DNA of 64,000 bases from contig NW_015176464.1 in assembly GCF_001447785.1 (NCBI RefSeq), positions 1-64,000 on the forward strand. Direction: 5' to 3'. Below, piece by piece: positions 1-63,906 of the stretch. The position numbers and the translations under genes were made by a program. This DNA is from Gekko japonicus. Lineage: Eukaryota. Numbering within the stretch: position 1 is the stretch's first letter; the number at the start of each line of letters is the position of its first letter. The notes beneath the pieces are model-generated. The model was not told the origin of the DNA, searched no databases, and saw nothing but the letters and a program-made list of their open reading frames with translations.

Positions 1-15
1 GAGCCAGAGAGTTCT

Positions 16-88
16 GGTGGCTCGCCGTGTTAAGGCACCACCTATAGAAATCATGAGGTTAATTTGATAGCGGTTCGAATCCCATGTA
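16..88 (+). other. tRNA-like Pol III element (tRNA pseudogene or tRNA-derived SINE head)
   Basis: A-box-like TGGCTCGCCGTGTTAAGG (18-35), B-box GGTTCGAATCC (72-82), followed directly by T-runs (90-100) resembling a Pol III terminator; acceptor stem does not pair cleanly. Confidence 0.4.
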
Positions 89-143
89 GTTTTTCTTTTT
101 GGGTAATGGTTCTATTTTTCTTTTTTTGGGCTTGTTTTATTTT

Positions 144-156
144 TCTATTTTTGTAC
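144..156 (-). terminator. snRNA 3' box-like element (GTACAAAAATAGA)
   Basis: Resembles the GTTTN1-4AANARNAGA consensus (imperfect 5' half); lies 9 nt after the terminal stem-loop. Confidence 0.55.
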
Positions 157-165
157 AATAAAGAT

Positions 166-509
166 AGGGTTTAAGAACCCTGAGGTAGCAGCATGGAACG
201 ATCGAACCGAGAGTACAAGACACACCCACTGCCTTGCCTTGTAAAAAGCAGCTTTCATCAGTGCATCCCTATATGTAGATTTATTTAAGCTACCGGGATG
301 CGTGATGAGCCAGCATGCATAAGGCGCCGTGTGAGGGCAAGCCTTTACAGCAAATACTTTGGTGCATCCTTGTAAGCGGGATGCAATGTGAAGGCAGTGA
401 GGGGTTCGATGGACAGTTCCATCTAGACTAGGTGTGCTAGCCTTCCTTTAGACTCTAAAGGAAGAATACCATAGTCTGGCCCACTCAGAGACCCGAAGGC
501 CTCAAGTTT
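166..509 (-). ncRNA. Putative orphan Pol II snRNA-type structured RNA (~344 nt)
   Basis: Minus-strand start TTC|AAACUUGAGG 63 nt after the PSE; 5' cUUCGg hairpin; many nested stems; terminal hairpin 166-181 then a 3' box-like motif 9 nt downstream. Confidence 0.65.
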
Positions 510-553
510 GAAACCTCAGCCACCCGATCTAGTCTTCCTTATTTTTCCTTTTG

Positions 554-572
554 ATTTCTATGTAAAGGTGAC
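554..572 (-). promoter_or_regulatory. Proximal sequence element (PSE) GTCACCTTTACATAGAAAT
   Basis: Close to the vertebrate SNAPc-binding PSE consensus; no TATA downstream (Pol II type); -63 from a C|A start. Confidence 0.65.
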
Positions 573-697
573 CGTTTTTCACCATGTTTTAACTCTAGGA
601 ATTAGTTTGATTAAACATATAACGACCTTTAAGTAGATTAGGTATGACAACGGATTGATATAAATGTTTATTTTTTTTGTTGATTTAAAACATTCAA

Positions 698-730
698 GTG
701 CCCAGCATGCTTTGAGAAATCTATTTGCAT
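698..730. promoter_or_regulatory. Distal sequence element 1: SPH/ZNF143 site (698-716) plus octamer ATTTGCAT (723-730)
   Basis: GTGCCCAGCATGCTTTGAG next to a perfect octamer, -189 to -221 from the inferred start at 509. Confidence 0.65.
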
Positions 731-883
731 ATATGCCAGCCCCCAACGTCAAAATTACACTCTTGCCCTATATGGATCGATCATGGACTGATCCATTTCC
801 CCGTAATCAAAGGGGGGAGACGTGGGGTTTTTTTGTTTATTATTTTTGTTTTTTTTTAAATCTATTGTTCACACAGTAAAATC

Positions 884-990
884 GGGGGTCTTATTGATGA
901 AAAACCCCTTGGTTAAAAGAGGTACGATACTTATATCGTTCCCTCCGAGGCTCTATGACCTCAGTTTAAAAATAGCCAAGGCTAATGTGA
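884..990 (-). ncRNA. Possible second snRNA-type small RNA (~105 nt; 5' end uncertain)
   Basis: Terminal hairpin 885-908 (G-U pair only on minus), 3' box-like GTGTGAACAATAGA (861-874) 10 nt downstream, two internal hairpins, second DSE ~200 nt upstream; no convincing minus-strand PSE. Confidence 0.35.
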
Positions 991-1181
991 ACTGCACATC
1001 GAACCCATCACGGCCGTGCACAGAGCATGTCTCGCACCCCGGGTTCGAGCTGCAGATTACATTGGACCTTCATGGACTCTTCCTCAACAGAGAGGGAGTT
1101 CCTATGATGATGCCCTTCCGCATGAAGAGAATCATTCTTCAGAATTGCTTTTGCGCTCATGGGGAACAGATTAGGGTAGAG

Positions 1182-1224
1182 CTCCCATGATGCTTTGGAT
1201 TCAAAGGGGGGTGATTATGCAAAT
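1182..1224. promoter_or_regulatory. Distal sequence element 2: SPH-like site (1182-1199) plus octamer ATGCAAAT (1217-1224)
   Basis: CTCCCATGATGCTTTGGA plus a perfect octamer, same order as DSE1. Confidence 0.55.
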
Positions 1225-1281
1225 AGCCCAGCGAGCTATTCCGGAAACTACCGAAGGAGCTTTCGTCAATTTTCGAGACTA

Positions 1282-1644
1282 ATGCTTGTGTTTTCGTTTA
1301 AGCTCGGAGCTTTCCGACGGACTGCCAGAACGCCGATTGCTCTGAATCGGCCAAGCTCGGGTCTCAGGCCCCGACGACTGTTTCAGTCATCCATATTACG
1401 TTCAAGACGACCCGCGGATGTGGTGGTAGAGATAGAAACCCCCAAGCCGCGTCCGAAAGTGCTTCTTTGCTTCATGTTAATGTTCATATGTTTGAGTATT
1501 TTACTTTTGTGTGGAATAGTTATTCAAATTTTACATTTTGTTGATCTTGGTGCAATTACTCGGGATCGTGTTCTACAATGGATCCTGGTTGTAAATAAAC
1601 GTTTACACAACTATCTTGTTGCTCCTGTGGGAGCTACATCTTGA
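1282..1644 (+). CDS. Hypothetical 120-aa basic single-pass membrane protein (or terminal exon from acceptor at 1302)
   Basis: In-frame ATG at 1282; Arg/Ser/Pro-rich N-terminus, hydrophobic VLLCFMLMFICLSILLLCGIVIQIL; AATAAA ~40 and ~70 nt after the stop; CTAAT...pyrimidines...AG acceptor at 1279-1302. Confidence 0.35.
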   Translation: MLVFSFKLGAFRRTARTPIALNRPSSGLRPRRLFQSSILRSRRPADVVVEIETPKPRPKVLLCFMLMFICLSILLLCGIVIQILHFVDLGAITRDRVLQWILVVNKRLHNYLVAPVGATS

Positions 1645-1870
1645 GCTCCAGTGCCAGTATTCAGTTATAATTTCTACCTCGGTTGAATAAAGTTATCTTT
1701 TGGATTTATTTTTGAAATAAAAGTTTATATTGTATTAAAACAGTATATATATATATATTGAATACATCGTTGGTGAAGAAAATTTTGAAGTCTGAATCAT
1801 CTTTGTATACATATTTTTAATGCACCACAATTTTATTACGGATATATATATATATTTACCTTAAATGTTC

Positions 1871-3262: not shown

Positions 3263-3874
3263 AATCCCACCTTACAATCCCCAGCACCACCTTACTAGTT
3301 AGTTAATAGTAATATTAAATTGACACAATAGCCAATCACGGACTTGTTGGGAAGGGCTCTATGATAATGAGGATAAGTCGTTCCCCTCCCTCCAGAAGAA
3401 AAGTTTAAAAACAGAGAACACGGAACTATCAGCAGCCTTTTTCTCTTACTGAAACTTTCTTACATTAGCTCTAGTCTGCAGCTAGGGTTAAGTTTCTCGT
3501 GTCTCCAGCAGGTCTAGAGTCACGTGTCTCTCCTCTCTTTTCATTCATTTTTACCCCCTTGCCACTGCCCATTGCTGGAAGCTTTAGGAGCAGAACGGAG
3601 CATCTGAGGTAAATATATTCTACAAGAAACAACGTTAGTTCCTAATTGTGCTATAATAATTCTATCTGGTTTTCTTAGTTCTTGAATGTGTGTATGGTTT
3701 TACTATTATTATTCCCTGTTTGAATGATCAATACTCAGTAAAGAATTGTTGTTTTACTTTAAGTTGTCGTCTCTTGATTAAAGCGTCATTGCACAGCGGC
3801 ACCCTTTGTATACATTGACCGTAACCCAGTTATTAATAAGCTAATTATCTCTCATAAAGAGTGATTAGGCTAAC
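3263..3874 (+). mobile_element. Probable LTR fragment
   Basis: Ends GGCTAACA like the solo LTR at 21801-22755; CCAAT and AGTAAA motifs; 5' end not identifiable. Confidence 0.35.
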
Positions 3875-4144
3875 AGTATGATGATATACATTCTACTCTT
3901 TTAGACCCAAATTTATTTAACATGATAGGCTGCCTGGATACTTTGAAGGTGTGCCATCTTCTGAATGATTCATCACCTGAAATAACTGAAAAAGTAGCCT
4001 TATTTCTAAGTTTGGTAATTAAGGATCAATTGTGTAATGTCTAGATGCATATGATTGACTCATTTTCCCTTGTTACCTCTTTATCTGTTTATTGTTTCTA
4101 CCTGTAATTTGATATATGCCAATATCTGTGAGTGAGTGAATGTT

Positions 4145-25824: not shown

Positions 25825-28800
25825 ACCTAAATCTTAACTTAGTCTGCCTAATAAACCATATCCTTATGCCTAGTATGCCTAAAAGGAACCTAAACTAAAT
25901 ATGAAATGTTCCTATTAATCTACAATCTAATTAACCTTTGCATTCACTATTCCTAAATCTTATTCAAAGGTGTTAAGTAAATATATACATCAAGGGGTAG
26001 AATGGGACTCAAATGTAGGATGAGATGTTTTACAGAGGGGTACAGGCTGCAAAGCATTAATCAACAGCAAAATCAGCTGCAAGGCATTAATCAACAGCAA
26101 ATGGCCAGGGCACAGCAGGAAGATTATAAAGTAGCCATGTCTGCCTTTCAGCTAGATAGGACCAAATTACTTTCTGTTAACTGTGCCTACTTTGGAATTC
26201 AATATGTGCAGATAGGTATCAATCACAGGTTGTACTTTCACCTCAGCCTCCCCCGCTTGGCAACACCAGTCAGGGAACACTTAGTCTGGCACCAAGGATG
26301 GTGAGGGCGAGGAGCCGTCCGGGAAATATAACTCTTTACATCAGTTTTTGGTAACATCACCCACTTTTGTGCTATTATGAACTGGCAGTCTTCCACAAGA
26401 TAAATTTTTGCCTCTTCTTGCTTCCTCAGTGAACATAGTATCTAAAGCTAATAACTTGGATTCATTTACTGGATTAATACATTTCTGCATTCTTTATATT
26501 CTTTTTCACACAGATTATCAAAACAGAAAATATCTGTTGGTTAGTTTACATCTTATATTAAAATCTTCAGGATTACAGGAAACCATGTCTTGAAACAACT
26601 ATTTTCACAATGACTATTTGTACATTCCTGATGCATATGGTGTATGCCAGTCAATAAATCTGGGAGAATGGTGTGTTTTAGTGCAGAATTCTAGACTTTT
26701 TGAAAATAAATTATTGGGGGTGATCCATAATCTGCTTCATTTAAAGCACTCAGTAAATTAATTATGCTGATGTTATCTTGACAGAAAAGATAATAGACAG
26801 TGCTCACTTCTGTCTGCACAAAGGTATTAAAGGTTCAATTTCTACTAAAATTTCTTCTTCTAAAAGTAATACCTACCTTGAGTAACTCCATCCTGGATTG
26901 CTAACCTTCTATCAGTAGATCACAAACTCAGGGAAACAGATAAACTGTTTTCTTTTAGGGACAGTAAGGAGAATTCTCTTCACTGAAAAAGCAGCCCCTG
27001 TATAAGGTGATAGTACATGTGTCAGTGGTTAAATTTTGAGCTAATTGAAATAAAATCCCCATCAGGTGTATCTTGTTTATAGCTAGAATCCAGGAAGGGT
27101 CAATCACAGGAAATTACTAGTATGCTTGATATTCAAGGGAATGCCAGTAAACTACGTACATACCCTCAGAGGACACTGTATACAGACACACACCTGGTTG
27201 TTGGGGTGGCAGAAAAGGGCAAGTAATGCAATTAAAGCAAATTGCTAAAGAAAGATTTATGGATGTTTGTTATTATATTTTTGCAAATGCACAGAATGTG
27301 GACACAAATAGTCTTGAAAAATCAAAATGTCAGAAAACCAGTATCATAATGGTTAGAGTGCTGGATTGTAACCTGGAAGATCCAGTTTCAGATCTCCACT
27401 CTGCCATAAAGCTTGATGTGTGACTTTAACCCTGTCACATGATCTTACCCTAATCTACTTGGACAGGATTGCGGTGAAGATAAAATGAGGAAGGAGTAAG
27501 GCTGCCATATTTCCAAGTTACCTAGCGATTGCTTTACATCTCTTCTTGTTTACTACTACAGAATGTCACAGAAAACATACCTTTACCTGATTCTTTGTCC
27601 ATGCCAGGATTTGCTCAGGCATACATGGAAGACTGAAAAATGGAACAAGGTATTTTGCCCCAAGACCTCTAGTTTTATGGTTCCAGCAGTACATGGCTCT
27701 GGAATTAATGTACAGTAGACCTTCACATGTAGAAGGTTCTTGATTGCTTTCCTCCTAAGTCTTGAACTTTTGGTAGTTAAAAGCTAAAGTCATGCATACA
27801 CCTCAGTCTGTAGTCTTTACCCTTATTAAAAACAGGAAGTCCCCATAGGCAGCTGAAACAAGGGAGGGATGCTCTTCTGTGTGCATACCTACCTCCTCTT
27901 GGTTTTGATGAAACAGAACAGTATGTATTAATAATGAATCTAAGAGTTTCTCTGCACAATTAAAAACTTTACTATGCCATTCAAGATAGGGTTGCCAGCT
28001 GTGGGTGGGGAACTACCTGGAGATTTTGGAGGTGAAGCCTGGGAAGGGTGGGGTTTGGGGAGGGTCCAATGCCTTAGAGTCCACCCTCCAAAGCAGCCAT
28101 TTTCTCCAGGGTAACTGATCTCTGTTGTTTGGAGATAAGTTGTGACAGCAGGAGATCTCCAGGCCCCACCTGGAGGTTGGCAGCCCTAACTCAACTAGTC
28201 ATCTGACCTAGGGTTGCCAACTGATTGGATAAAAGATATCTCGTCCCTTTAATATAGGCTTCGTGGTATGTTATTTAGGAGGTGATATAATTTACCTCCA
28301 TGCCATGTTTCCTCTATTAAAGGGACAGGACATTTTTCTTGAGCCCTGAACCTCAAGTGTTGTCACAGATTTCTTGCCGAAAACTGGCTTCACCCCCCCC
28401 CCAACTCTGAATAACCTAAATATGTTTTTAATTAGCATATTCAATCAAAGCATATGCTGAAGAGCAGTATATGGAAGATCTTCAGATAATGAATACTACT
28501 CTTCACAGTACACCTCTAAAAGCAAGACAGCCCTATTCTGCAGAAAAGTTAGTCTGTGTAATTATAAACGTATTTTTCTATCCCTTTCCCCTAACCTACT
28601 GTATTGGCTCTGAAGGGCTTAGAATGAATCCCAAGCCACTTTCTCCCCCCAAACACTGAATATCTGTAATTCAAGGCAACAACCTAGAGAAGCCAAGCAG
28701 CTAGATCCACAAATAAAGCAGGGCTTTTGTGTCTTGCCAACTTATGGCAATCCTGTAGGTTTTTCAAGGCAAGAGATTTCAGAGGTGGCTTGCCATTACC

Positions 28801-29986
28801 TTCCTCTGTATAACAACCTGGGATTTCCTTGGTGGTCCTCCATCCAACTGCTAACCAGGGGCCAATCCTGCTTAGCTTTTGAGATCAGATGAGATTGGGC
28901 TAGCCTGTGGTGTTACATTGCCAACTGTCTTCAGAGAAGCAACTTGGAGATTTAAAGTTCTATGTCTGATTGAAATCCACAGCCTGCCCATAGCTCTATG
29001 CCTGCACTAACAAGAGTATTTTTGTAAACATGTATTTATTTTGAGATAAGTTGGAAAAAATGTTATCAAATACATTTTCTAGCTGTAACTTGACATGGTA
29101 TGCATGTGAAGTTGTCAGCCAGCAGGCGAGTCACTATCTGTTGCTGGGTATTATATATTTAAATATTATAGTAACAATAATTCCCACCCAGTACAGGTAA
29201 CACCATGAGACAACAGTACAACGCTAGCCTGTAATTATTGTTCTTTGCTTATTTCAGGATCAAGTAACAGCATCAATCCAGTTACAGAAACATAAAGAAT
29301 CATTTCAAGCTTCTAAAAGATTTTCTTTGCTAATCTTCTCCCTAGTAAGTGGTGGGGGGCACTGAAATGTATTGGAGTGACACTTGAAATCTGTAGCTAC
29401 ATTTGTCATTCTGCCAAGGACATGGAGAGAACCTGCCTGAACACCAGCGGGAAAACAATTTGCTGAAGCAGCTGAAGCAGTAAGTTGCAACTCATTGAAA
29501 ACCATCCCCAGCACCCTGCTACATGATCAACAGCTATTGAAGTGGGACTTGAAATATGGATTTGATGGTACAAAACAGAAGATAGATAACACACACTTTG
29601 GACTGACCTCCATTTGGTGGAATGTGATAACCAACATCTGAAGAGTTATCTGCATCTCTCAGGTGAAATCAACTGAAACATGATAGCCCCAGACGTTAGT
29701 GTTCAAAGATACTACTTGGATTCCAGAATCCAGAGTGTGAAATGTATAACTTGTTCCACTTGTACTTTGACTAAACTAAGGAAGTTTTTTCCCCACCCAC
29801 ATTGGCTCTCAGCTCCTAGGTCTGATTCTCATTGAGGTGGGTAAAGGTTTATATGATGAAATGTGCTTCAGGATAAAACAAATCTTTTGTTCAGAGAAAA
29901 CTAGATGGCAGAATGGTTTTAGACTAGTCTTCTCCATGACATGCTAGTTTTCTTCTATGTGTGTGCACTGTTTCTATGGGGACCAC

Positions 29987-30297
29987 CAGGGCTGGTGCTA
30001 CCATTAGGCCAACCTAGGCAGCCACCTAGGGTGCTGACCTCAGAAGAGTGCAGAACTGACAGTCTGCATTACTGTGCAGGAACCCCACCACCAGGCGCCA
30101 AGGAGAGCTTAAAATACAATTCATGTATAAGAGCTGCTGCAAACAATTCATGATTTTTAAAAGCAACTAAAAAGTCCAGTTTTCATTTGAAGGTAGTCAA
30201 AACAGAGGGGGGGGGGAGTTTGAAAATTGGTGGGCGCATGGGGGAGCACCAGAAGGTAGCCTCGCCTAGTGTGCAAAAAAACCTGACACCAGCCCTG
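29987..30297. mobile_element. hAT MITE (duplicated at ~36083-36403)
   Basis: TIR CAGGGCTGGTG / CACCAGCCCTG, 8-bp TSD GGGACCAC. Confidence 0.8.
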
Positions 30298-32941
30298 GGG
30301 ACCACTCAGTCATACAATTCCCCCCCCATTCCTTCACTCTGACAGCCCTGGCAGATTTACCATCTCTCACTTAAAAGAGAGAATAGGAGGTTTTATACCA
30401 CTCAGTGGTTTTACCTTGCATTTACTCAAAGCAGGCCTGTCACCTCTGTTTCTCCAGCTCTACGCTCAGCTCCAGGGCTTTCCATACTATTGACAGCTGA
30501 GACATGCATCGCACACTTAAAATGTTTCCTTTGAGGTTTCTAATACTAATCAGGCAAGAATTGAGGTTGCCAGCCTCCAGGAAGGGTCTGGAGTTCTCCA
30601 GGAGTTACTTCTGATTTCCAGACTAAAGAGATCAGTTCTTTTGGAAGAAATGGCCGTTTCTGAGGGCAGACTCTATGGCAACGCATTCCCACTGGGCTCC
30701 CTCTCCTCCCAGACACTGTTTCCAAATCTCCAGGAATTTCCCAGGCCGAGTTGGCAACCCTATGCTCCTCAGCACCTTAATATTCCTGTTTTAATCTTAT
30801 TTTATTGTTATTTGGGGGGTGAGTATTTTGTGTGTGGGTGTGTGTTCCTGGAATTCATGGTTGACTTCTGGTGACCCCTAGTGGGGCATGGACATTTCAA
30901 AGCGGTGGCTGACTATTGCATGCCTCTGCATCCCAGCTCTGGTATTCCTTGGAGGTCTCCCTTCCAAGGACTTGCCAGGGTCTGCCATGCTTAGCTTCCA
31001 AGATCTGACGAGATCAGGCTATCCAGGTCAGGGCTATTGTTCTTATTTTTGTAAAACATGTTGGGGGTTATTTGAATTAAAAGGGGTGAACAAAAGTATT
31101 TTAAAAGTGTTTAAAGAAACCACCAATTTTAATTAATGTTAAAATAGTAACTTTTCTGACTATCCTTCTTCGTTGTACACAGGCAAACCCAGAGGTGTAA
31201 CAGAGACACAACAGGCAATCTCCTTTAAGGAAATTAATTCTACTGCACTCAGAGTGGCTGAATAATCCAAAATCAAAACAGAACTGCCCACCCCAGAGTA
31301 ATCTCACTGGAAAGATACGAGGTCATCACAGGAAGCCTCCTCTGTGGGTGGCTAATTTGGGTTCCTAAGAACCTTTCATTATTCATTTATTTATCATAGG
31401 TTGCACTCTAGCTGTTCCTTCTCTTATGGTGTGGTAGTTTCCTACACAGAAGCCACCCTAATTTTTACAAAATCTCCATGATAAGATATCATAGCCAAGA
31501 AAATGTTCACGAGAAATAAGTGAATGTTAAGACATGCTGACAATGATGATGCTTTACACTGTATGAATGCTGTCTCCTTTTACTCTCTCAATTTGTGTTT
31601 CAACTAGACCACAAACCAGAGTATCAGCAATCCAAACTCTTTCACTAAAAGTTGGAACTGATTGTTGAGGCTGGGATCTTGGTGCAGGGAATTGCTAGCA
31701 TTTTGTGCCACAAGATGGCAGCCTTTCCTTTCTAATTTCTTTGAAATATTTTCCCCTATTTATAGTTGAGAGGGGGTAAGACAAGTAAACCCTAACCTGG
31801 ATGGCCCAGGTTAGCCCAATCTCACCACAACTTGGGAGCTAGTTAGTAGTGGGATAGGAGACCACCAAGGAAGTCCAATGTCACCATGCAGAGGAAGGCA
31901 ATAGCAAACCTCCTCTGTTAGTCCCTTGCCTTGAAAACCCTACAGGGTCACCATAAGTCAGCTGATTGTGACAACACTTGACACACAGAGAAGCTGAGTA
32001 CAGGGGGTTTGGGTGGTTTTTTTACAAGATTTCCTATACCCTACTAATATGTTTTAAATTTACAAACTAATAGCACATACAGAATCTCTTTAGCAGCCAA
32101 AGAGTATCAGAGAAAAAGCGTTTTCTGTTGTTGAACTCTATTTGTGGGATTCTCTTCTGAGAGACCAGTGCTCGCTCATTCTTAAATGTGGTTGAAATCT
32201 GTCCTGCTCATTTGTGCTTTTGTAACTGATTTTTCATATTTCACCCCTACAACAACAGTTTTCATATGCATTTTGGTTTATTTTATGCTATAGACTCCTG
32301 GGCAATTTTATCTGTTCCTTGAAAACCATGATTTGGCTGTTATGCATATTCTGAATCCGGCCAGGTTAGATAACTGCAGTGCAATTTAAGTGGGGTTGCC
32401 ATTAAAAACAGTCTGGAAACTTCAGCTGGTTCAAAATGCAGAAGCCACACACTACTGTCAGGGGCAGCATACAAAGATTATATCCCCAACCCCAGATGCT
32501 AAAAGATCTGTATGCCAGCCTATGTATTATTGCCGGTGTGTGTAATGGTTAGAATGTTGGCCCAAATTCTGGAAACTCAGATTCATATCCCTACTCTGCC
32601 ACAGAAGCTTGCTGGGTGACCTTGGGCCAGCCACACATTCTCAGCCTAACCTACCTTACAGGGGTGTTGTAGGGATTAAGGTGGGGTATAAATGAAGTAA
32701 GTTAATAAAATTATTTCCAGGCAAAATTACTTGTAAGGTCCTAAACAGCCTGGGACTGGTTCTGTTGAAGAACCACCTCCTCCCATATTGTACAGCCCAC
32801 AAAGTAAGATCTACCTTCCAAGCCCTGCTCTTTGCACCTCTATCGGCAGAGGTGAGGTGGGTGGTACTTAGAAACAGGGGTTTGTCATAGGTAGTGCCTC
32901 ACCTTTGGAATCCTCTCCCTTTTGTGGTCTGCCTGGTGTCT

Positions 32942-33290
32942 AAAGGTAAAGGTAAAGGTTCCCTTGCTCGAAAGCCAGTCGAGTCCGACTCTAGGGTTGC
33001 GGTGCTCATCTCCGTTTCAAAGCCGAAGAGCCAATGCTGTCCGAAGATGTTTCCGTGGTCATGTGGCCAGCATAACTAAACACCAAGGCGCACAGAACGC
33101 TGTTACCTTCCCACTGAAGTGGTACTACCTATTTATCTACTTGCAATTTCTTGCTTTCGAACTGCTAGGTTGGCAGGAGCTGGAACTAGAGACGGGAGCT
33201 CACTCCGTCTTGCGGCACCCGGGTCTCGAACTGCTGAACTACTGACCTTCCACAGCCTGCAGTTCAGCGTCTTAACCACTTGAGCCCTAC
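32942..33290 (-). mobile_element. Sauria SINE (duplicated at ~39048-39396)
   Basis: (ACCTTT)n tail read as AAAGGTAAAGGT on +, BovB-like GTCGAGTCCGACTC 3' part, tRNA-like head. Confidence 0.8.
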
Positions 33291-36200
33291 TGTTAATAGC
33301 AGGAGACCAAAACATTTCTTTACCCAGGCTTTTAAGAGAAGTTTTATCTCATCTTTTTCAGCTGGTTGTTTTATGACCTGTGTGCTACTTTTTATTACTA
33401 TTGTTGTTTTATAACTGCTTAAATGTCAGAAAACCAGTATCATAATGGTTAGAGTGCTGGATTGTAACCTGGAAGATCCAGTTTCAGATCTCCACTCTGC
33501 CATAAAGCTTGATGTGTGACTTTAACCCTGTCACATGATCTTACCCTAATCTACTTGGACAGGATTGCGGTGAAGATAAAATGAGGAAGGAGTAAGGCTG
33601 CCATATTTCCAAGTTACCTAGCGATTGCTTTACATCTCTTCTTGTTTACTACTACAGAATGTCACAGAAAACATACCTTTACCTGATTCTTTGTCCATGC
33701 CAGGATTTGCTCAGGCATACATGGAAGACTGAAAAATGGAACAAGGTATTTTGCCCCAAGACCTCTAGTTTTATGGTTCCAGCAGTACATGGCTCTGGAA
33801 TTAATGTACAGTAGACCTTCACATGTAGAAGGTTCTTGATTGCTTTCCTCCTAAGTCTTGAACTTTTGGTAGTTAAAAGCTAAAGTCATGCATACACCTC
33901 AGTCTGTAGTCTTTACCCTTATTAAAAACAGGAAGTCCCCATAGGCAGCTGAAACAAGGGAGGGATGCTCTTCTGTGTGCATACCTACCTCCTCTTGGTT
34001 TTGATGAAACAGAACAGTATGTATTAATAATGAATCTAAGAGTTTCTCTGCACAATTAAAAACTTTACTATGCCATTCAAGATAGGGTTGCCAGCTGTGG
34101 GTGGGGAACTACCTGGAGATTTTGGAGGTGAAGCCTGGGAAGGGTGGGGTTTGGGGAGGGTCCAATGCCTTAGAGTCCACCCTCCAAAGCAGCCATTTTC
34201 TCCAGGGTAACTGATCTCTGTTGTTTGGAGATAAGTTGTGACAGCAGGAGATCTCCAGGCCCCACCTGGAGGTTGGCAGCCCTAACTCAACTAGTCATCT
34301 GACCTAGGGTTGCCAACTGATTGGATAAAAGATATCTCGTCCCTTTAATATAGGCTTCGTGGTATGTTATTTAGGAGGTGATATAATTTACCTCCATGCC
34401 ATGTTTCCTCTATTAAAGGGACAGGACATTTTTCTTGAGCCCTGAACCTCAAGTGTTGTCACAGATTTCTTGCCGAAAACTGGCTTCACCCCCCCCCCAA
34501 CTCTGAATAACCTAAATATGTTTTTAATTAGCATATTCAATCAAAGCATATGCTGAAGAGCAGTATATGGAAGATCTTCAGATAATGAATACTACTCTTC
34601 ACAGTACACCTCTAAAAGCAAGACAGCCCTATTCTGCAGAAAAGTTAGTCTGTGTAATTATAAACGTATTTTTCTATCCCTTTCCCCTAACCTACTGTAT
34701 TGGCTCTGAAGGGCTTAGAATGAATCCCAAGCCACTTTCTCCCCCCAAACACTGAATATCTGTAATTCAAGGCAACAACCTAGAGAAGCCAAGCAGCTAG
34801 ATCCACAAATAAAGCAGGGCTTTTGTGTCTTGCCAACTTATGGCAATCCTGTAGGTTTTTCAAGGCAAGAGATTTCAGAGGTGGCTTGCCATTACCTTCC
34901 TCTGTATAACAACCTGGGATTTCCTTGGTGGTCCTCCATCCAACTGCTAACCAGGGGCCAATCCTGCTTAGCTTTTGAGATCAGATGAGATTGGGCTAGC
35001 CTGTGGTGTTACATTGCCAACTGTCTTCAGAGAAGCAACTTGGAGATTTAAAGTTCTATGTCTGATTGAAATCCACAGCCTGCCCATAGCTCTATGCCTG
35101 CACTAACAAGAGTATTTTTGTAAACATGTATTTATTTTGAGATAAGTTGGAAAAAATGTTATCAAATACATTTTCTAGCTGTAACTTGACATGGTATGCA
35201 TGTGAAGTTGTCAGCCAGCAGGCGAGTCACTATCTGTTGCTGGGTATTATATATTTAAATATTATAGTAACAATAATTCCCACCCAGTACAGGTAACACC
35301 ATGAGACAACAGTACAACGCTAGCCTGTAATTATTGTTCTTTGCTTATTTCAGGATCAAGTAACAGCATCAATCCAGTTACAGAAACATAAAGAATCATT
35401 TCAAGCTTCTAAAAGATTTTCTTTGCTAATCTTCTCCCTAGTAAGTGGTGGGGGGCACTGAAATGTATTGGAGTGACACTTGAAATCTGTAGCTACATTT
35501 GTCATTCTGCCAAGGACATGGAGAGAACCTGCCTGAACACCAGCGGGAAAACAATTTGCTGAAGCAGCTGAAGCAGTAAGTTGCAACTCATTGAAAACCA
35601 TCCCCAGCACCCTGCTACATGATCAACAGCTATTGAAGTGGGACTTGAAATATGGATTTGATGGTACAAAACAGAAGATAGATAACACACACTTTGGACT
35701 GACCTCCATTTGGTGGAATGTGATAACCAACATCTGAAGAGTTATCTGCATCTCTCAGGTGAAATCAACTGAAACATGATAGCCCCAGACGTTAGTGTTC
35801 AAAGATACTACTTGGATTCCAGAATCCAGAGTGTGAAATGTATAACTTGTTCCACTTGTACTTTGACTAAACTAAGGAAGTTTTTTCCCCACCCACATTG
35901 GCTCTCAGCTCCTAGGTCTGATTCTCATTGAGGTGGGTAAAGGTTTATATGATGAAATGTGCTTCAGGATAAAACAAATCTTTTGTTCAGAGAAAACTAG
36001 ATGGCAGAATGGTTTTAGACTAGTCTTCTCCATGACATGCTAGTTTTCTTCTATGTGTGTGCACTGTTTCTATGGGGACCACCAGGGCTGGTGCTACCAT
36101 TAGGCCAACCTAGGCAGCCACCTAGGGTGCTGACCTCAGAAGAGTGCAGAACTGACAGTCTGCATTACTGTGCAGGAACCCCACCACCAGGCGCCAAGGA

Positions 36201-39200
36201 GAGCTTAAAATACAATTCATGTATAAGAGCTGCTGCAAACAATTCATGATTTTTAAAAGCAACTAAAAAGTCCAGTTTTCATTTGAAGGTAGTCAAAACA
36301 GAGGGGGGGGGGGGTTTGGGGGAGTTTGAAAATTGGTGGGCGCATGGGGGAGCACCAGAAGGTAGCCTCGCCTAGTGTGCAAAAAAACCTGACACCAGCC
36401 CTGGGGACCACTCAGTCATACAATTCCCCCCCCATTCCTTCACTCTGACAGCCCTGGCAGATTTACCATCTCTCACTTAAAAGAGAGAATAGGAGGTTTT
36501 ATACCACTCAGTGGTTTTACCTTGCATTTACTCAAAGCAGGCCTGTCACCTCTGTTTCTCCAGCTCTACGCTCAGCTCCAGGGCTTTCCATACTATTGAC
36601 AGCTGAGACATGCATCGCACACTTAAAATGTTTCCTTTGAGGTTTCTAATACTAATCAGGCAAGAATTGAGGTTGCCAGCCTCCAGGAAGGGTCTGGAGT
36701 TCTCCAGGAGTTACTTCTGATTTCCAGACTAAAGAGATCAGTTCTTTTGGAAGAAATGGCCGTTTCTGAGGGCAGACTCTATGGCAACGCATTCCCACTG
36801 GGCTCCCTCTCCTCCCAGACACTGTTTCCAAATCTCCAGGAATTTCCCAGGCCGAGTTGGCAACCCTATGCTCCTCAGCACCTTAATATTCCTGTTTTAA
36901 TCTTATTTTATTGTTATTTGGGGGGTGAGTATTTTGTGTGTGGGTGTGTGTTCCTGGAATTCATGGTTGACTTCTGGTGACCCCTAGTGGGGCATGGACA
37001 TTTCAAAGCGGTGGCTGACTATTGCATGCCTCTGCATCCCAGCTCTGGTATTCCTTGGAGGTCTCCCTTCCAAGGACTTGCCAGGGTCTGCCATGCTTAG
37101 CTTCCAAGATCTGACGAGATCAGGCTATCCAGGTCAGGGCTATTGTTCTTATTTTTGTAAAACATGTTGGGGGTTATTTGAATTAAAAGGGGTGAACAAA
37201 AGTATTTTAAAAGTGTTTAAAGAAACCACCAATTTTAATTAATGTTAAAATAGTAACTTTTCTGACTATCCTTCTTCGTTGTACACAGGCAAACCCAGAG
37301 GTGTAACAGAGACACAACAGGCAATCTCCTTTAAGGAAATTAATTCTACTGCACTCAGAGTGGCTGAATAATCCAAAATCAAAACAGAACTGCCCACCCC
37401 AGAGTAATCTCACTGGAAAGATACGAGGTCATCACAGGAAGCCTCCTCTGTGGGTGGCTAATTTGGGTTCCTAAGAACCTTTCATTATTCATTTATTTAT
37501 CATAGGTTGCACTCTAGCTGTTCCTTCTCTTATGGTGTGGTAGTTTCCTACACAGAAGCCACCCTAATTTTTACAAAATCTCCATGATAAGATATCATAG
37601 CCAAGAAAATGTTCACGAGAAATAAGTGAATGTTAAGACATGCTGACAATGATGATGCTTTACACTGTATGAATGCTGTCTCCTTTTACTCTCTCAATTT
37701 GTGTTTCAACTAGACCACAAACCAGAGTATCAGCAATCCAAACTCTTTCACTAAAAGTTGGAACTGATTGTTGAGGCTGGGATCTTGGTGCAGGGAATTG
37801 CTAGCATTTTGTGCCACAAGATGGCAGCCTTTCCTTTCTAATTTCTTTGAAATATTTTCCCCTATTTATAGTTGAGAGGGGGTAAGACAAGTAAACCCTA
37901 ACCTGGATGGCCCAGGTTAGCCCAATCTCACCACAACTTGGGAGCTAGTTAGTAGTGGGATAGGAGACCACCAAGGAAGTCCAATGTCACCATGCAGAGG
38001 AAGGCAATAGCAAACCTCCTCTGTTAGTCCCTTGCCTTGAAAACCCTACAGGGTCACCATAAGTCAGCTGATTGTGACAACACTTGACACACAGAGAAGC
38101 TGAGTACAGGGGGTTTGGGTGGTTTTTTTACAAGATTTCCTATACCCTACTAATATGTTTTAAATTTACAAACTAATAGCACATACAGAATCTCTTTAGC
38201 AGCCAAAGAGTATCAGAGAAAAAGCGTTTTCTGTTGTTGAACTCTATTTGTGGGATTCTCTTCTGAGAGACCAGTGCTCGCTCATTCTTAAATGTGGTTG
38301 AAATCTGTCCTGCTCATTTGTGCTTTTGTAACTGATTTTTCATATTTCACCCCTACAACAACAGTTTTCATATGCATTTTGGTTTATTTTATGCTATAGA
38401 CTCCTGGGCAATTTTATCTGTTCCTTGAAAACCATGATTTGGCTGTTATGCATATTCTGAATCCGGCCAGGTTAGATAACTGCAGTGCAATTTAAGTGGG
38501 GTTGCCATTAAAAACAGTCTGGAAACTTCAGCTGGTTCAAAATGCAGAAGCCACACACTACTGTCAGGGGCAGCATACAAAGATTATATCCCCAACCCCA
38601 GATGCTAAAAGATCTGTATGCCAGCCTATGTATTATTGCCGGTGTGTGTAATGGTTAGAATGTTGGCCCAAATTCTGGAAACTCAGATTCATATCCCTAC
38701 TCTGCCACAGAAGCTTGCTGGGTGACCTTGGGCCAGCCACACATTCTCAGCCTAACCTACCTTACAGGGGTGTTGTAGGGATTAAGGTGGGGTATAAATG
38801 AAGTAAGTTAATAAAATTATTTCCAGGCAAAATTACTTGTAAGGTCCTAAACAGCCTGGGACTGGTTCTGTTGAAGAACCACCTCCTCCCATATTGTACA
38901 GCCCACAAAGTAAGATCTACCTTCCAAGCCCTGCTCTTTGCACCTCTATCGGCAGAGGTGAGGTGGGTGGTACTTAGAAACAGGGGTTTGTCATAGGTAG
39001 TGCCTCACCTTTGGAATCCTCTCCCTTTTGTGGTCTGCCTGGTGTCTAAAGGTAAAGGTAAAGGTTCCCTTGCTCGAAAGCCAGTCGAGTCCGACTCTAG
39101 GGTTGCGGTGCTCATCTCCGTTTCAAAGCCGAAGAGCCAATGCTGTCCGAAGATGTTTCCGTGGTCATGTGGCCAGCATAACTAAACACCAAGGCGCACA

Positions 39201-63705: not shown

Positions 63706-63906
63706 GGGGAGGGGCTGTGGCTCAGTGGGAGAGCCTCTGCTTTGCATACAGAAGGTTCCAGGTTCAGTCCCTGGCATCTCCAGTTAAAAGTATGAGACAG
63801 TAGGTGACGTAAAAAAACTCTACCTGGCAAGATGCTGCCAGTCTGACTAGGCAGTACTGACCTTGATGGACTGATAGTCTGATTCCATATAAGGCAGCTT
63901 CATATG
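63706..63906 (+). mobile_element. tRNA(Ala)-like-headed SINE
   Basis: GGGGCTGTGGCTCAGTGGGAGAGCCTCTGCTTTGCATACAGAAGGTTCCAGGTTCAGTCCCTGGCATCTCCA followed by a non-tRNA body. Confidence 0.7.

Follow-up and report, generated by a model that had tools for sequence, protein, structure and literature searches.

What kind of gene occupies the first few hundred bases of this gecko scaffold, and to which genome does it belong? The earlier note described, on the minus strand of the 64,000-nt stretch of Gekko japonicus DNA analysed here (the window), a TATA-less Pol II unit of the U1/U2 class enclosing a structured RNA unlike known families, and assigned it either to the host or to a virus or mobile element. 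The latter is correct: the unit lies inside an endogenous retrovirus and is not a host locus. It is accompanied by a second unit and carries a cluster of microRNA seed matches, both of which are additions to that description. Judged from their sequences, units 1 and 2 are a real, selected pair of snRNA-type genes borne by the retrovirus, and we put at about one in two the probability that the RNA of unit 1 is a non-Sm product of SNAPc and Integrator, encoded by the retrovirus, that acts as a decoy by binding the microRNAs let-7, miR-15/16 and miR-103/107.

Positions 1–1870 (plus strand, in the sense of the element) belong to an endogenous retrovirus present in many copies, in which they form the non-coding spacer that separates env from the 3' LTR. 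A search of the gecko's own genome gave at least 44 matches over at least 27 contigs, of which four partial ones (C162435, C5336, C8339 and C7833) were left unaligned, and the entire first contig of the window (1–1870) is common to four other loci at 78–90% identity. At these four loci, gag, pro-pol and env reading frames lie upstream of the shared spacer and an LTR of ~1 kb lies downstream; env and pol are absent from this copy, and the scaffold begins at window base 1. Pfam identifies protease, reverse transcriptase, two RNase H domains and integrase in the longer copies, the ~1-kb LTRs have TG..CA ends, and the element has a PBS-like site and a polypurine tract (PPT). Reading frames, Pfam domains, LTR pairs, PBS-like site and PPT together give the order LTR-PBS-gag-pro-pol-env-PPT-LTR. 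Because the LTR pairs of four elements are 99.6, 99.0, 96.3 and 93.5% identical (range 93–99.6%), several insertions are young; a fifth pair, at 99.0%, extends into duplicated flank. The PBS-like site (L043:3628–3660, L035:2877–2910 and near 2617 in L045) is offset by 3–4 nt from the LTR end and differs by subfamily, and we take it to be tRNA-Pro-like in one subfamily and tRNA-Thr-like in the other.

Unit 1 is antisense to the element and lies outside the LTR, within the ~2.3-kb non-coding spacer that runs from the env stop to the 3' LTR. In this copy, the spacer is followed by an assembly gap (1871–2470) and then by unrelated sequence up to the remnant of the LTR at 3283. The features of the two units and the LTR remnant are:

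723–730, minus strand: unit 1 octamer (DSE), exact in 21 of 23 rows, with 9/9 columns invariant.
695–713, core 701–710, minus strand: unit 1 SPH/ZNF143-type site (DSE), as we presume the motif to be, in 21 of 23 rows.
554–572, minus strand: unit 1 PSE, in register −62, pattern present in 21 of 23 rows.
166–509, minus strand: RNA1, predicted at ~344 nt, both ends predicted.
181–194, minus strand: RNA1 linker of 14 nt, with overlapping seed matches for miR-103/107 (7mer-m8), miR-15/16 (8mer) and let-7 (8mer).
166–181, minus strand: terminal hairpin of RNA1, with U-A at pair 177–170 in 12 copies and C-G in 10 others.
144–156, minus strand: unit 1 3' box, in 22 of 23 rows, 9 nt past the RNA1 end.
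1148–1224, minus strand: compact promoter of unit 2, with octamer (1217–1224), SPH site (1179–1196), PSE-like site (1148–1165) and no TATA.
881–1103, minus strand: RNA2, predicted at ~223 nt, fold z −4.0 and none of 200 shuffles as stable.
861–874, minus strand: unit 2 3' box-like site, weaker than that of unit 1, with a between-subfamily column identity of 0.51.
3283–3875, plus strand: 3' part of this copy's 3' LTR, 82–83% identical to the LTR of two other copies.

The promoter description given in the earlier note survives with small changes. The octamer is where it was placed, the PSE with its first base 63 nt before position 509 and no TATA is confirmed, and the terminal hairpin (181–166) and the 3' box 9 nt later (156–144) are both present. 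An SPH site had been placed at 698–716; there is a site with its core there, and its extended span is 695–713. The proposed U1-like RNA start at 509 does not hold up, since it is not conserved and the window's third base recurs in only 4 of 22 copies. Conservation of the promoter elements in homologues, which the note had named as a test of its reading, was found: octamer, SPH site, PSE and 3' box persist across 22 copies (counts of 22 exclude the fragment L050), and the two rows without the octamer are fragments that end short of it.

The copies fall into two subfamilies (12 and 10 rows), and the comparison between these gives conservation its meaning. Identity between subfamilies is 1.00 for the octamer, 0.81 for the SPH site, 0.66 for the PSE, which is thus only moderately conserved, and 0.90 for the 3' box, and 0.48 and 0.47 for the drifting DSE–PSE spacer and the sequence just downstream of the 3' box. 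For one pair of copies per gene, identity at four-fold degenerate sites is 0.48 (108/227) for pol and 0.58 (96/166) for env. The subfamilies are far more diverged than the young insertions are old, so selection most likely operated while the element was replicating rather than on copies already fixed in the host. The arrangement of the motifs is also kept. The PSE stands in the −61/−62 register in all 15 copies scored with a stricter pattern, with no TATA, and the octamer lies at −221 to −227 in 19 of the 21 copies covering it and at −109 in two with a spacer deletion. In L040 and L012, ~115 nt of the DSE–PSE spacer are missing while all motifs are kept, making unit 1 there as compact as unit 2.

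Single motifs occur in the 64 kb at near-chance frequency: the PSE with one mismatch 4 times against 3.4 expected, the octamer 3 times against 4.3, and the SPH core 4 times against 2.5. Two of the three octamers, two of the four SPH cores and two of the four PSE matches sit in the two units. An exact PSE with octamer and SPH site nearby has a joint expectation of ~1e-6 per window, an optimistic figure for motifs picked post hoc, and conservation across the paralogous copies is stronger evidence than these motif statistics. Two further elements adjoin the promoters. What we take to be a CArG-type box (766–775, minus strand) lies ~45 nt upstream of the unit 1 octamer in 18 of 21 copies, is imperfect in the window copy, and could tie unit 1 or the LTR to serum-response signalling. 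Nearly invariant copies of the polypurine-tract word adjoin the DSE of each unit (808–817 and 1202–1211); they might prime plus-strand synthesis internally, bind factors or be left over from a duplication that produced the units.

The gecko's own snRNA genes offer a direct standard for this design. The host PSE stands at −62 in U1 and U11 and at −61 in U5 and U12, and units 1 and 2 share the −61/−62 register; host U2 has no clear PSE at the one locus compared. Three host U1 genes have the octamer followed by the SPH site, as in unit 1, where the SPH site lies ~20 nt behind the octamer in the identical layout, and their 3' box, 7–9 nt past the U1 end, is nearly identical to that of unit 1. The U1/U2-class design seen in the earlier note (DSE and PSE, no TATA, 3' box) is thus conserved in the copies and matches host U1, U5, U11 and U12: DSE layout, PSE at −61/−62, absence of TATA and a 3' box after a hairpin are common to these host genes and the retroviral unit. 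The retroviral unit differs from them in its unrelated RNA body, its variable length, its proviral location and the absence of an Sm site.

RNA1 bears out the earlier description of a structured RNA of ~344 nt, with a fold z of −4.8 and none of 100 shuffles equally stable; its length ranges from 256 to 382 nt across copies. The predicted architecture comprises a UUCG-capped 5' hairpin, a nested domain 2, a long core stem, an unpaired linker and the terminal hairpin. The core stem encloses a modular, variable middle in which hairpin modules are gained or lost between copies, and the 5' hairpin and domain 2 are ~0.85 identical between subfamilies. Its lack of resemblance to known RNA families is also upheld. 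Rfam gives no match near gathering score in window 1–1500, in the whole window (where only an unrelated tRNA-Ala at 63711 is found) or in the four other loci, and known host snRNAs, 7SK, RNase P/MRP and telomerase RNA were rejected on this result. An Sm-like word occurs in just 2 of 22 RNA1 bodies, in agreement with the note's failure to see a clear Sm site, and the seed linker holds that position. A protein-coding RNA1 was rejected on a longest ATG frame of 31 codons, and an HSUR-type pre-microRNA past the 3' box on the lack of a common long hairpin among three copies.

The stems of RNA1 covary, and the way they vary bears on the strand of the structure. At positions paired by Watson-Crick rules in the window copy, variants in other copies give 66 Watson-Crick, 44 G-U, 4 A-C and 26 other cells, counted in copies and not in events; the distinct variant types number 7, 9, 4 and 6, respectively. 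Taking the helices from the minus-strand fold biases the G-U count somewhat, and independent covariation events are few, since most changes reflect the single subfamily split. The UUCG loop is retained in 20 of 23 rows, and this loop and the G-U excess favour the minus strand. Folding energy does not discriminate, as the minus strand folds better in only 10 of 22 copies and plus-strand folds are equally stable.

Unit 2, located just upstream, repeats the design of unit 1 in more compact form, with its PSE in register −62. Identity between subfamilies in RNA2 is 0.77 versus 0.45–0.50 in its flanks (16 aligned rows; the alignment leaves out L003, which has a gap, and the identity counts leave out L048). 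RNA2 has a terminal hairpin, and an inner hairpin has been exchanged as a whole with pairing retained. Most copies of unit 2 carry, in reverse, a variant octamer that is also used in host U1 DSEs (L058–L060). An invariant motif in the core stem is common to RNA1 and RNA2 (403–410/201–208 and 1041–1048/998–1005, minus strand); it resembles the T-arm/B-box word of tRNAs and is possibly a common protein-binding site. Two long invariant runs of 14 and 13 nt lie at 913–951 (minus strand) in RNA2, one with a let-7 6-mer match inside a hairpin, and RNA2 has no exposed seed cluster comparable to the RNA1 linker.

No invariant run in the 700-nt alignment is longer than the 12 nt (193–182) in that linker, which lies between core stem and terminal hairpin and has an identity between subfamilies of 0.99. 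These 12 nt consist of the miR-16 site and the let-7 site combined and are bounded at both ends by seed matches. Pairing was checked against microRNA hairpins from the same genome (L051, L052, L054, L055–L057 and L065). Host let-7 pairs through nt 2–11, with one G-U, in 23/23 rows, with an opposing A in 22; members of the host miR-16 family pair through nt 2–8 plus A in 23/23 rows; and host miR-103 pairs through nt 2–8 or more in 22/23. No other 7-mers are predicted to be unpaired as often as those from the linker, in up to 19 of 22 copies, although in several subfamily-A copies the linker is only partly unpaired (p ~0.3–0.6); accessible sites for host microRNAs are thus predicted at the sequence level. 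Because the three sites overlap, one RNA1 molecule would hold one microRNA at a time. Contiguous pairing ends at nt 8 to 11 and does not extend into the microRNA 3' half, the upstream bases being in the core stem, which argues against microRNA decay by a TDMD trigger of the HSUR1–miR-27 type. By a hand estimate that assumes ~100 conserved microRNA seed families, an 8mer match falls in a given 13-mer by chance in ~1% of cases and two matches do so far less often; the sites are not independent, since microRNA families partly resemble each other. A role for the linker as a partner of the RNase H coding region was considered on account of a 12-nt match in three subfamily-B copies and rejected as coincidence, because the codons differ in the one subfamily-A copy where the motif is found.

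In three unstranded raw cDNA runs with the same species label, sampled at 3–12% each, no discrete RNA1 or RNA2 transcript was seen. Reads over 1–1870 numbered 241, 8 and 110 in these runs; they are mostly less than 95% alike and mostly from other copies, lie in both directions, include the promoters and show no pile-up of beginnings or ends. A 726-nt contig from a fourth run (X2) spans both predicted RNA1 ends. These data represent read-through transcripts or DNA, and they neither show nor exclude a small non-polyadenylated RNA.

We propose that a retrovirus gained snRNA-type units behind env, opposed to the viral genome, and that in the provirus these units would attract Pol II through host Oct1/ZNF143 and SNAPc. 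Cleavage by Integrator at the 3' box would then yield an abundant, capped, non-polyadenylated RNA of ~250–380 nt. Lacking an Sm site, this RNA would not enter a classical snRNP and could remain cytoplasmic, where its exposed 14-nt linker would seed-pair with Argonaute loaded with let-7, miR-15/16 or miR-103/107. These are major anti-proliferative microRNA families, and decoy action in infected cells would relieve repression of their targets in growth and survival. With the units antisense, viral mRNAs would not carry the microRNA sites.

Other accounts of the same observations keep less of this scheme. RNA1 could act as an adaptor in the manner of HSUR2 of Herpesvirus saimiri, with the bound microRNA delivered to host mRNAs that pair with the variable middle and are thereby repressed. 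HSUR2 gives the precedent, in that it binds miR-16, pairs variably with mRNAs with no fixed seed and delivers the microRNA to repress them (PMC13158664). The modular middle of RNA1, which varies between copies, and seed-only pairing, which is compatible with binding without microRNA decay, would both suit such a role; the middle is, however, mainly base-paired in the predicted folds, and we regard an adaptor as unlikely. It is also conceivable that the seed matches are coincidental, the linker binds a protein and only structure counts, with the RNAs diverting dsRNA sensors or Dicer in the manner of VA and EBER RNAs, or regulating proviral transcription in antisense. Long stems dominate both folds, the conserved core stem is common to RNA1 and RNA2, and RNA2 is without a comparable exposed seed cluster, but a run of invariant bases bounded by seed matches, with the chance values given above, is hard to reconcile with coincidence, which makes this account quite doubtful for RNA1. 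A structural role could coexist with microRNA binding and may be that of RNA2.

More drastic is the suggestion that the units make no separate RNA, the structures serving export, packaging or stability of the sense genomic or env RNA and the octamer and SPH sites acting as LTR enhancers. cDNA reads do extend over the promoters and beyond the predicted ends, the plus strand folds no less stably than the minus strand, and the spacer also holds the conserved CArG-like box and polypurine-tract repeats. Such a role leaves unexplained the host-register PSE and the 3' box that follows a terminal hairpin by 9 nt, an arrangement present in two tandem units, as well as the UUCG loop and G-U excess of the minus strand, and we consider it distinctly improbable. 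Least credible, and in our estimate highly improbable, is a viral microRNA from the plus strand that mimics let-7. Plus-strand positions 181–188 equal nt 1–8 of host let-7, an element like Pol III A and B boxes lies upstream on that strand, and the Pol III microRNAs of BLV and foamy viruses would be a precedent (PMC4378190), but 181–188 is outside any long hairpin arm, the T-runs after the Pol III-like element precede it, and promoter and 3'-end signals all point the opposite way. These last three accounts are less likely than either the decoy or the adaptor.

The Pol III-like element in question (17–82, plus strand) is degenerate and tRNA-like; its A-box and B-box words precede a T-run. It is found in both subfamilies, forms no stable cloverleaf, resembles tRNA-Thr/Ser, and could form a Pol III unit directed towards RNA1. 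A true tRNA at 1–95 was rejected, as relaxed ARAGORN calls are discordant between copies. Between the env stop and this element, both subfamilies have a conserved non-coding block of ~18 nt (L026:185–340 and matching regions).

The decoy reading has its nearest parallels in the HSURs, RNAs of ~75–145 nt that are shorter than RNA1 and with which it shows no similarity by Rfam. HSURs are clustered, with snRNA promoters, a 3' box and Integrator processing (PMC4378190). HSUR1 and HSUR2 thus resemble the gecko units as a virus-borne cluster of snRNA-type units, with microRNA binding known for HSURs and predicted from sequence for the gecko element. HSURs belong to the Sm class, come from a DNA herpesvirus and bind miR-142-3p, miR-27 and miR-16, whereas the gecko units are not members of the HSUR group: they belong to a retrovirus, have an Sm-like word in 2 of 22 copies, and combine let-7, miR-15/16 and miR-103/107 in one overlapping 14-mer, a set unlike that of the HSURs. 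Retroviruses have other non-coding RNAs, and the antisense RNAs of HIV-1 and HTLV-1 are driven from the 3' LTR. Described cases are the Pol III microRNAs of BLV and foamy viruses (PMC4378190) and the long antisense RNAs of HIV-1 and HTLV-1 (PMC4378190, PMC5807749), which are like the gecko units in being internal or antisense units that give non-coding RNA separate from genomic RNA. The parts of these sources consulted describe neither a PSE/3' box unit nor a microRNA-binding decoy for these retroviral RNAs (PMC4378190, PMC5807749), and the literature that we searched, mostly papers outside subscription, yielded no report of a retrovirus with snRNA-type genes.

Named relatives of the element were found through env and include chicken LOC422926 and proteins of turtle, crane and stork. 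The env of the gecko element is 28–33% identical to LOC422926, which places it beside Ovex1/GGLTR11-type endogenous retroviruses of birds and reptiles; LOC422926 is ORF3 of Ovex1, of 873 aa (PMC2717909). Ovex1 is described there as a composite whose env and gag-pol are possibly of different origin (PMC2717909), whereas the gecko element is multi-copy. A word search of that paper returned no occurrence of snRNA or microRNA (PMC2717909). The element also resembles lokiretroviruses in its tether and RNase H domains and its RXKR cleavage site, and Atlas, as a lead only, finds a faint resemblance of env to paramyxovirus-type F0 (0.84). Pfam found no match to PF00523 in two env reading frames or 13 env relatives, and reptile lokiretroviruses are reported to be highly degraded (PMC7947760). 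We did not adopt a lokiretrovirus identity, which is without support beyond the weak Atlas lead, the named env relatives being of Ovex1 type. Searches of viral contigs with a DNA pattern and of metagenome contigs with env gave no homologues beyond the Gekko japonicus genome.

If the decoy reading is correct, the snRNA promoter/Integrator route to microRNA-binding RNAs has been taken convergently by unrelated virus classes, in Herpesvirus saimiri and in a retrovirus, and it would be a third route to retroviral regulatory RNA, beside Pol III microRNAs and LTR-driven antisense RNAs, that leaves the genome uncut. The overlap of let-7, miR-15/16 and miR-103/107 sites would be a compact natural element for binding several microRNAs. 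Many natural variants show which features of promoter and structure matter for a long non-Sm RNA of snRNA type, and the spacers of endogenous retroviruses may hold accessory non-coding genes that sit unnoticed. We suggest more tentatively that a retrovirus lineage independently evolved a non-Sm snRNA-class cassette, one member of which is a minimal triple microRNA trap in 14 nt, that this cassette possibly still is transcribed and tunes these microRNAs in the lizard, and that the shared core stem may define a new class of RNP. Transcription may continue, since promoters are intact in dozens of young proviral copies.

Elsewhere in the window, positions ~27300–39000 hold a tandem duplication of a ~6.1-kb unit, nearly identical and possibly an assembly artefact, and 63711–63782 (plus strand) is a tRNA-Ala(TGC) gene unrelated to the snRNA-type units.
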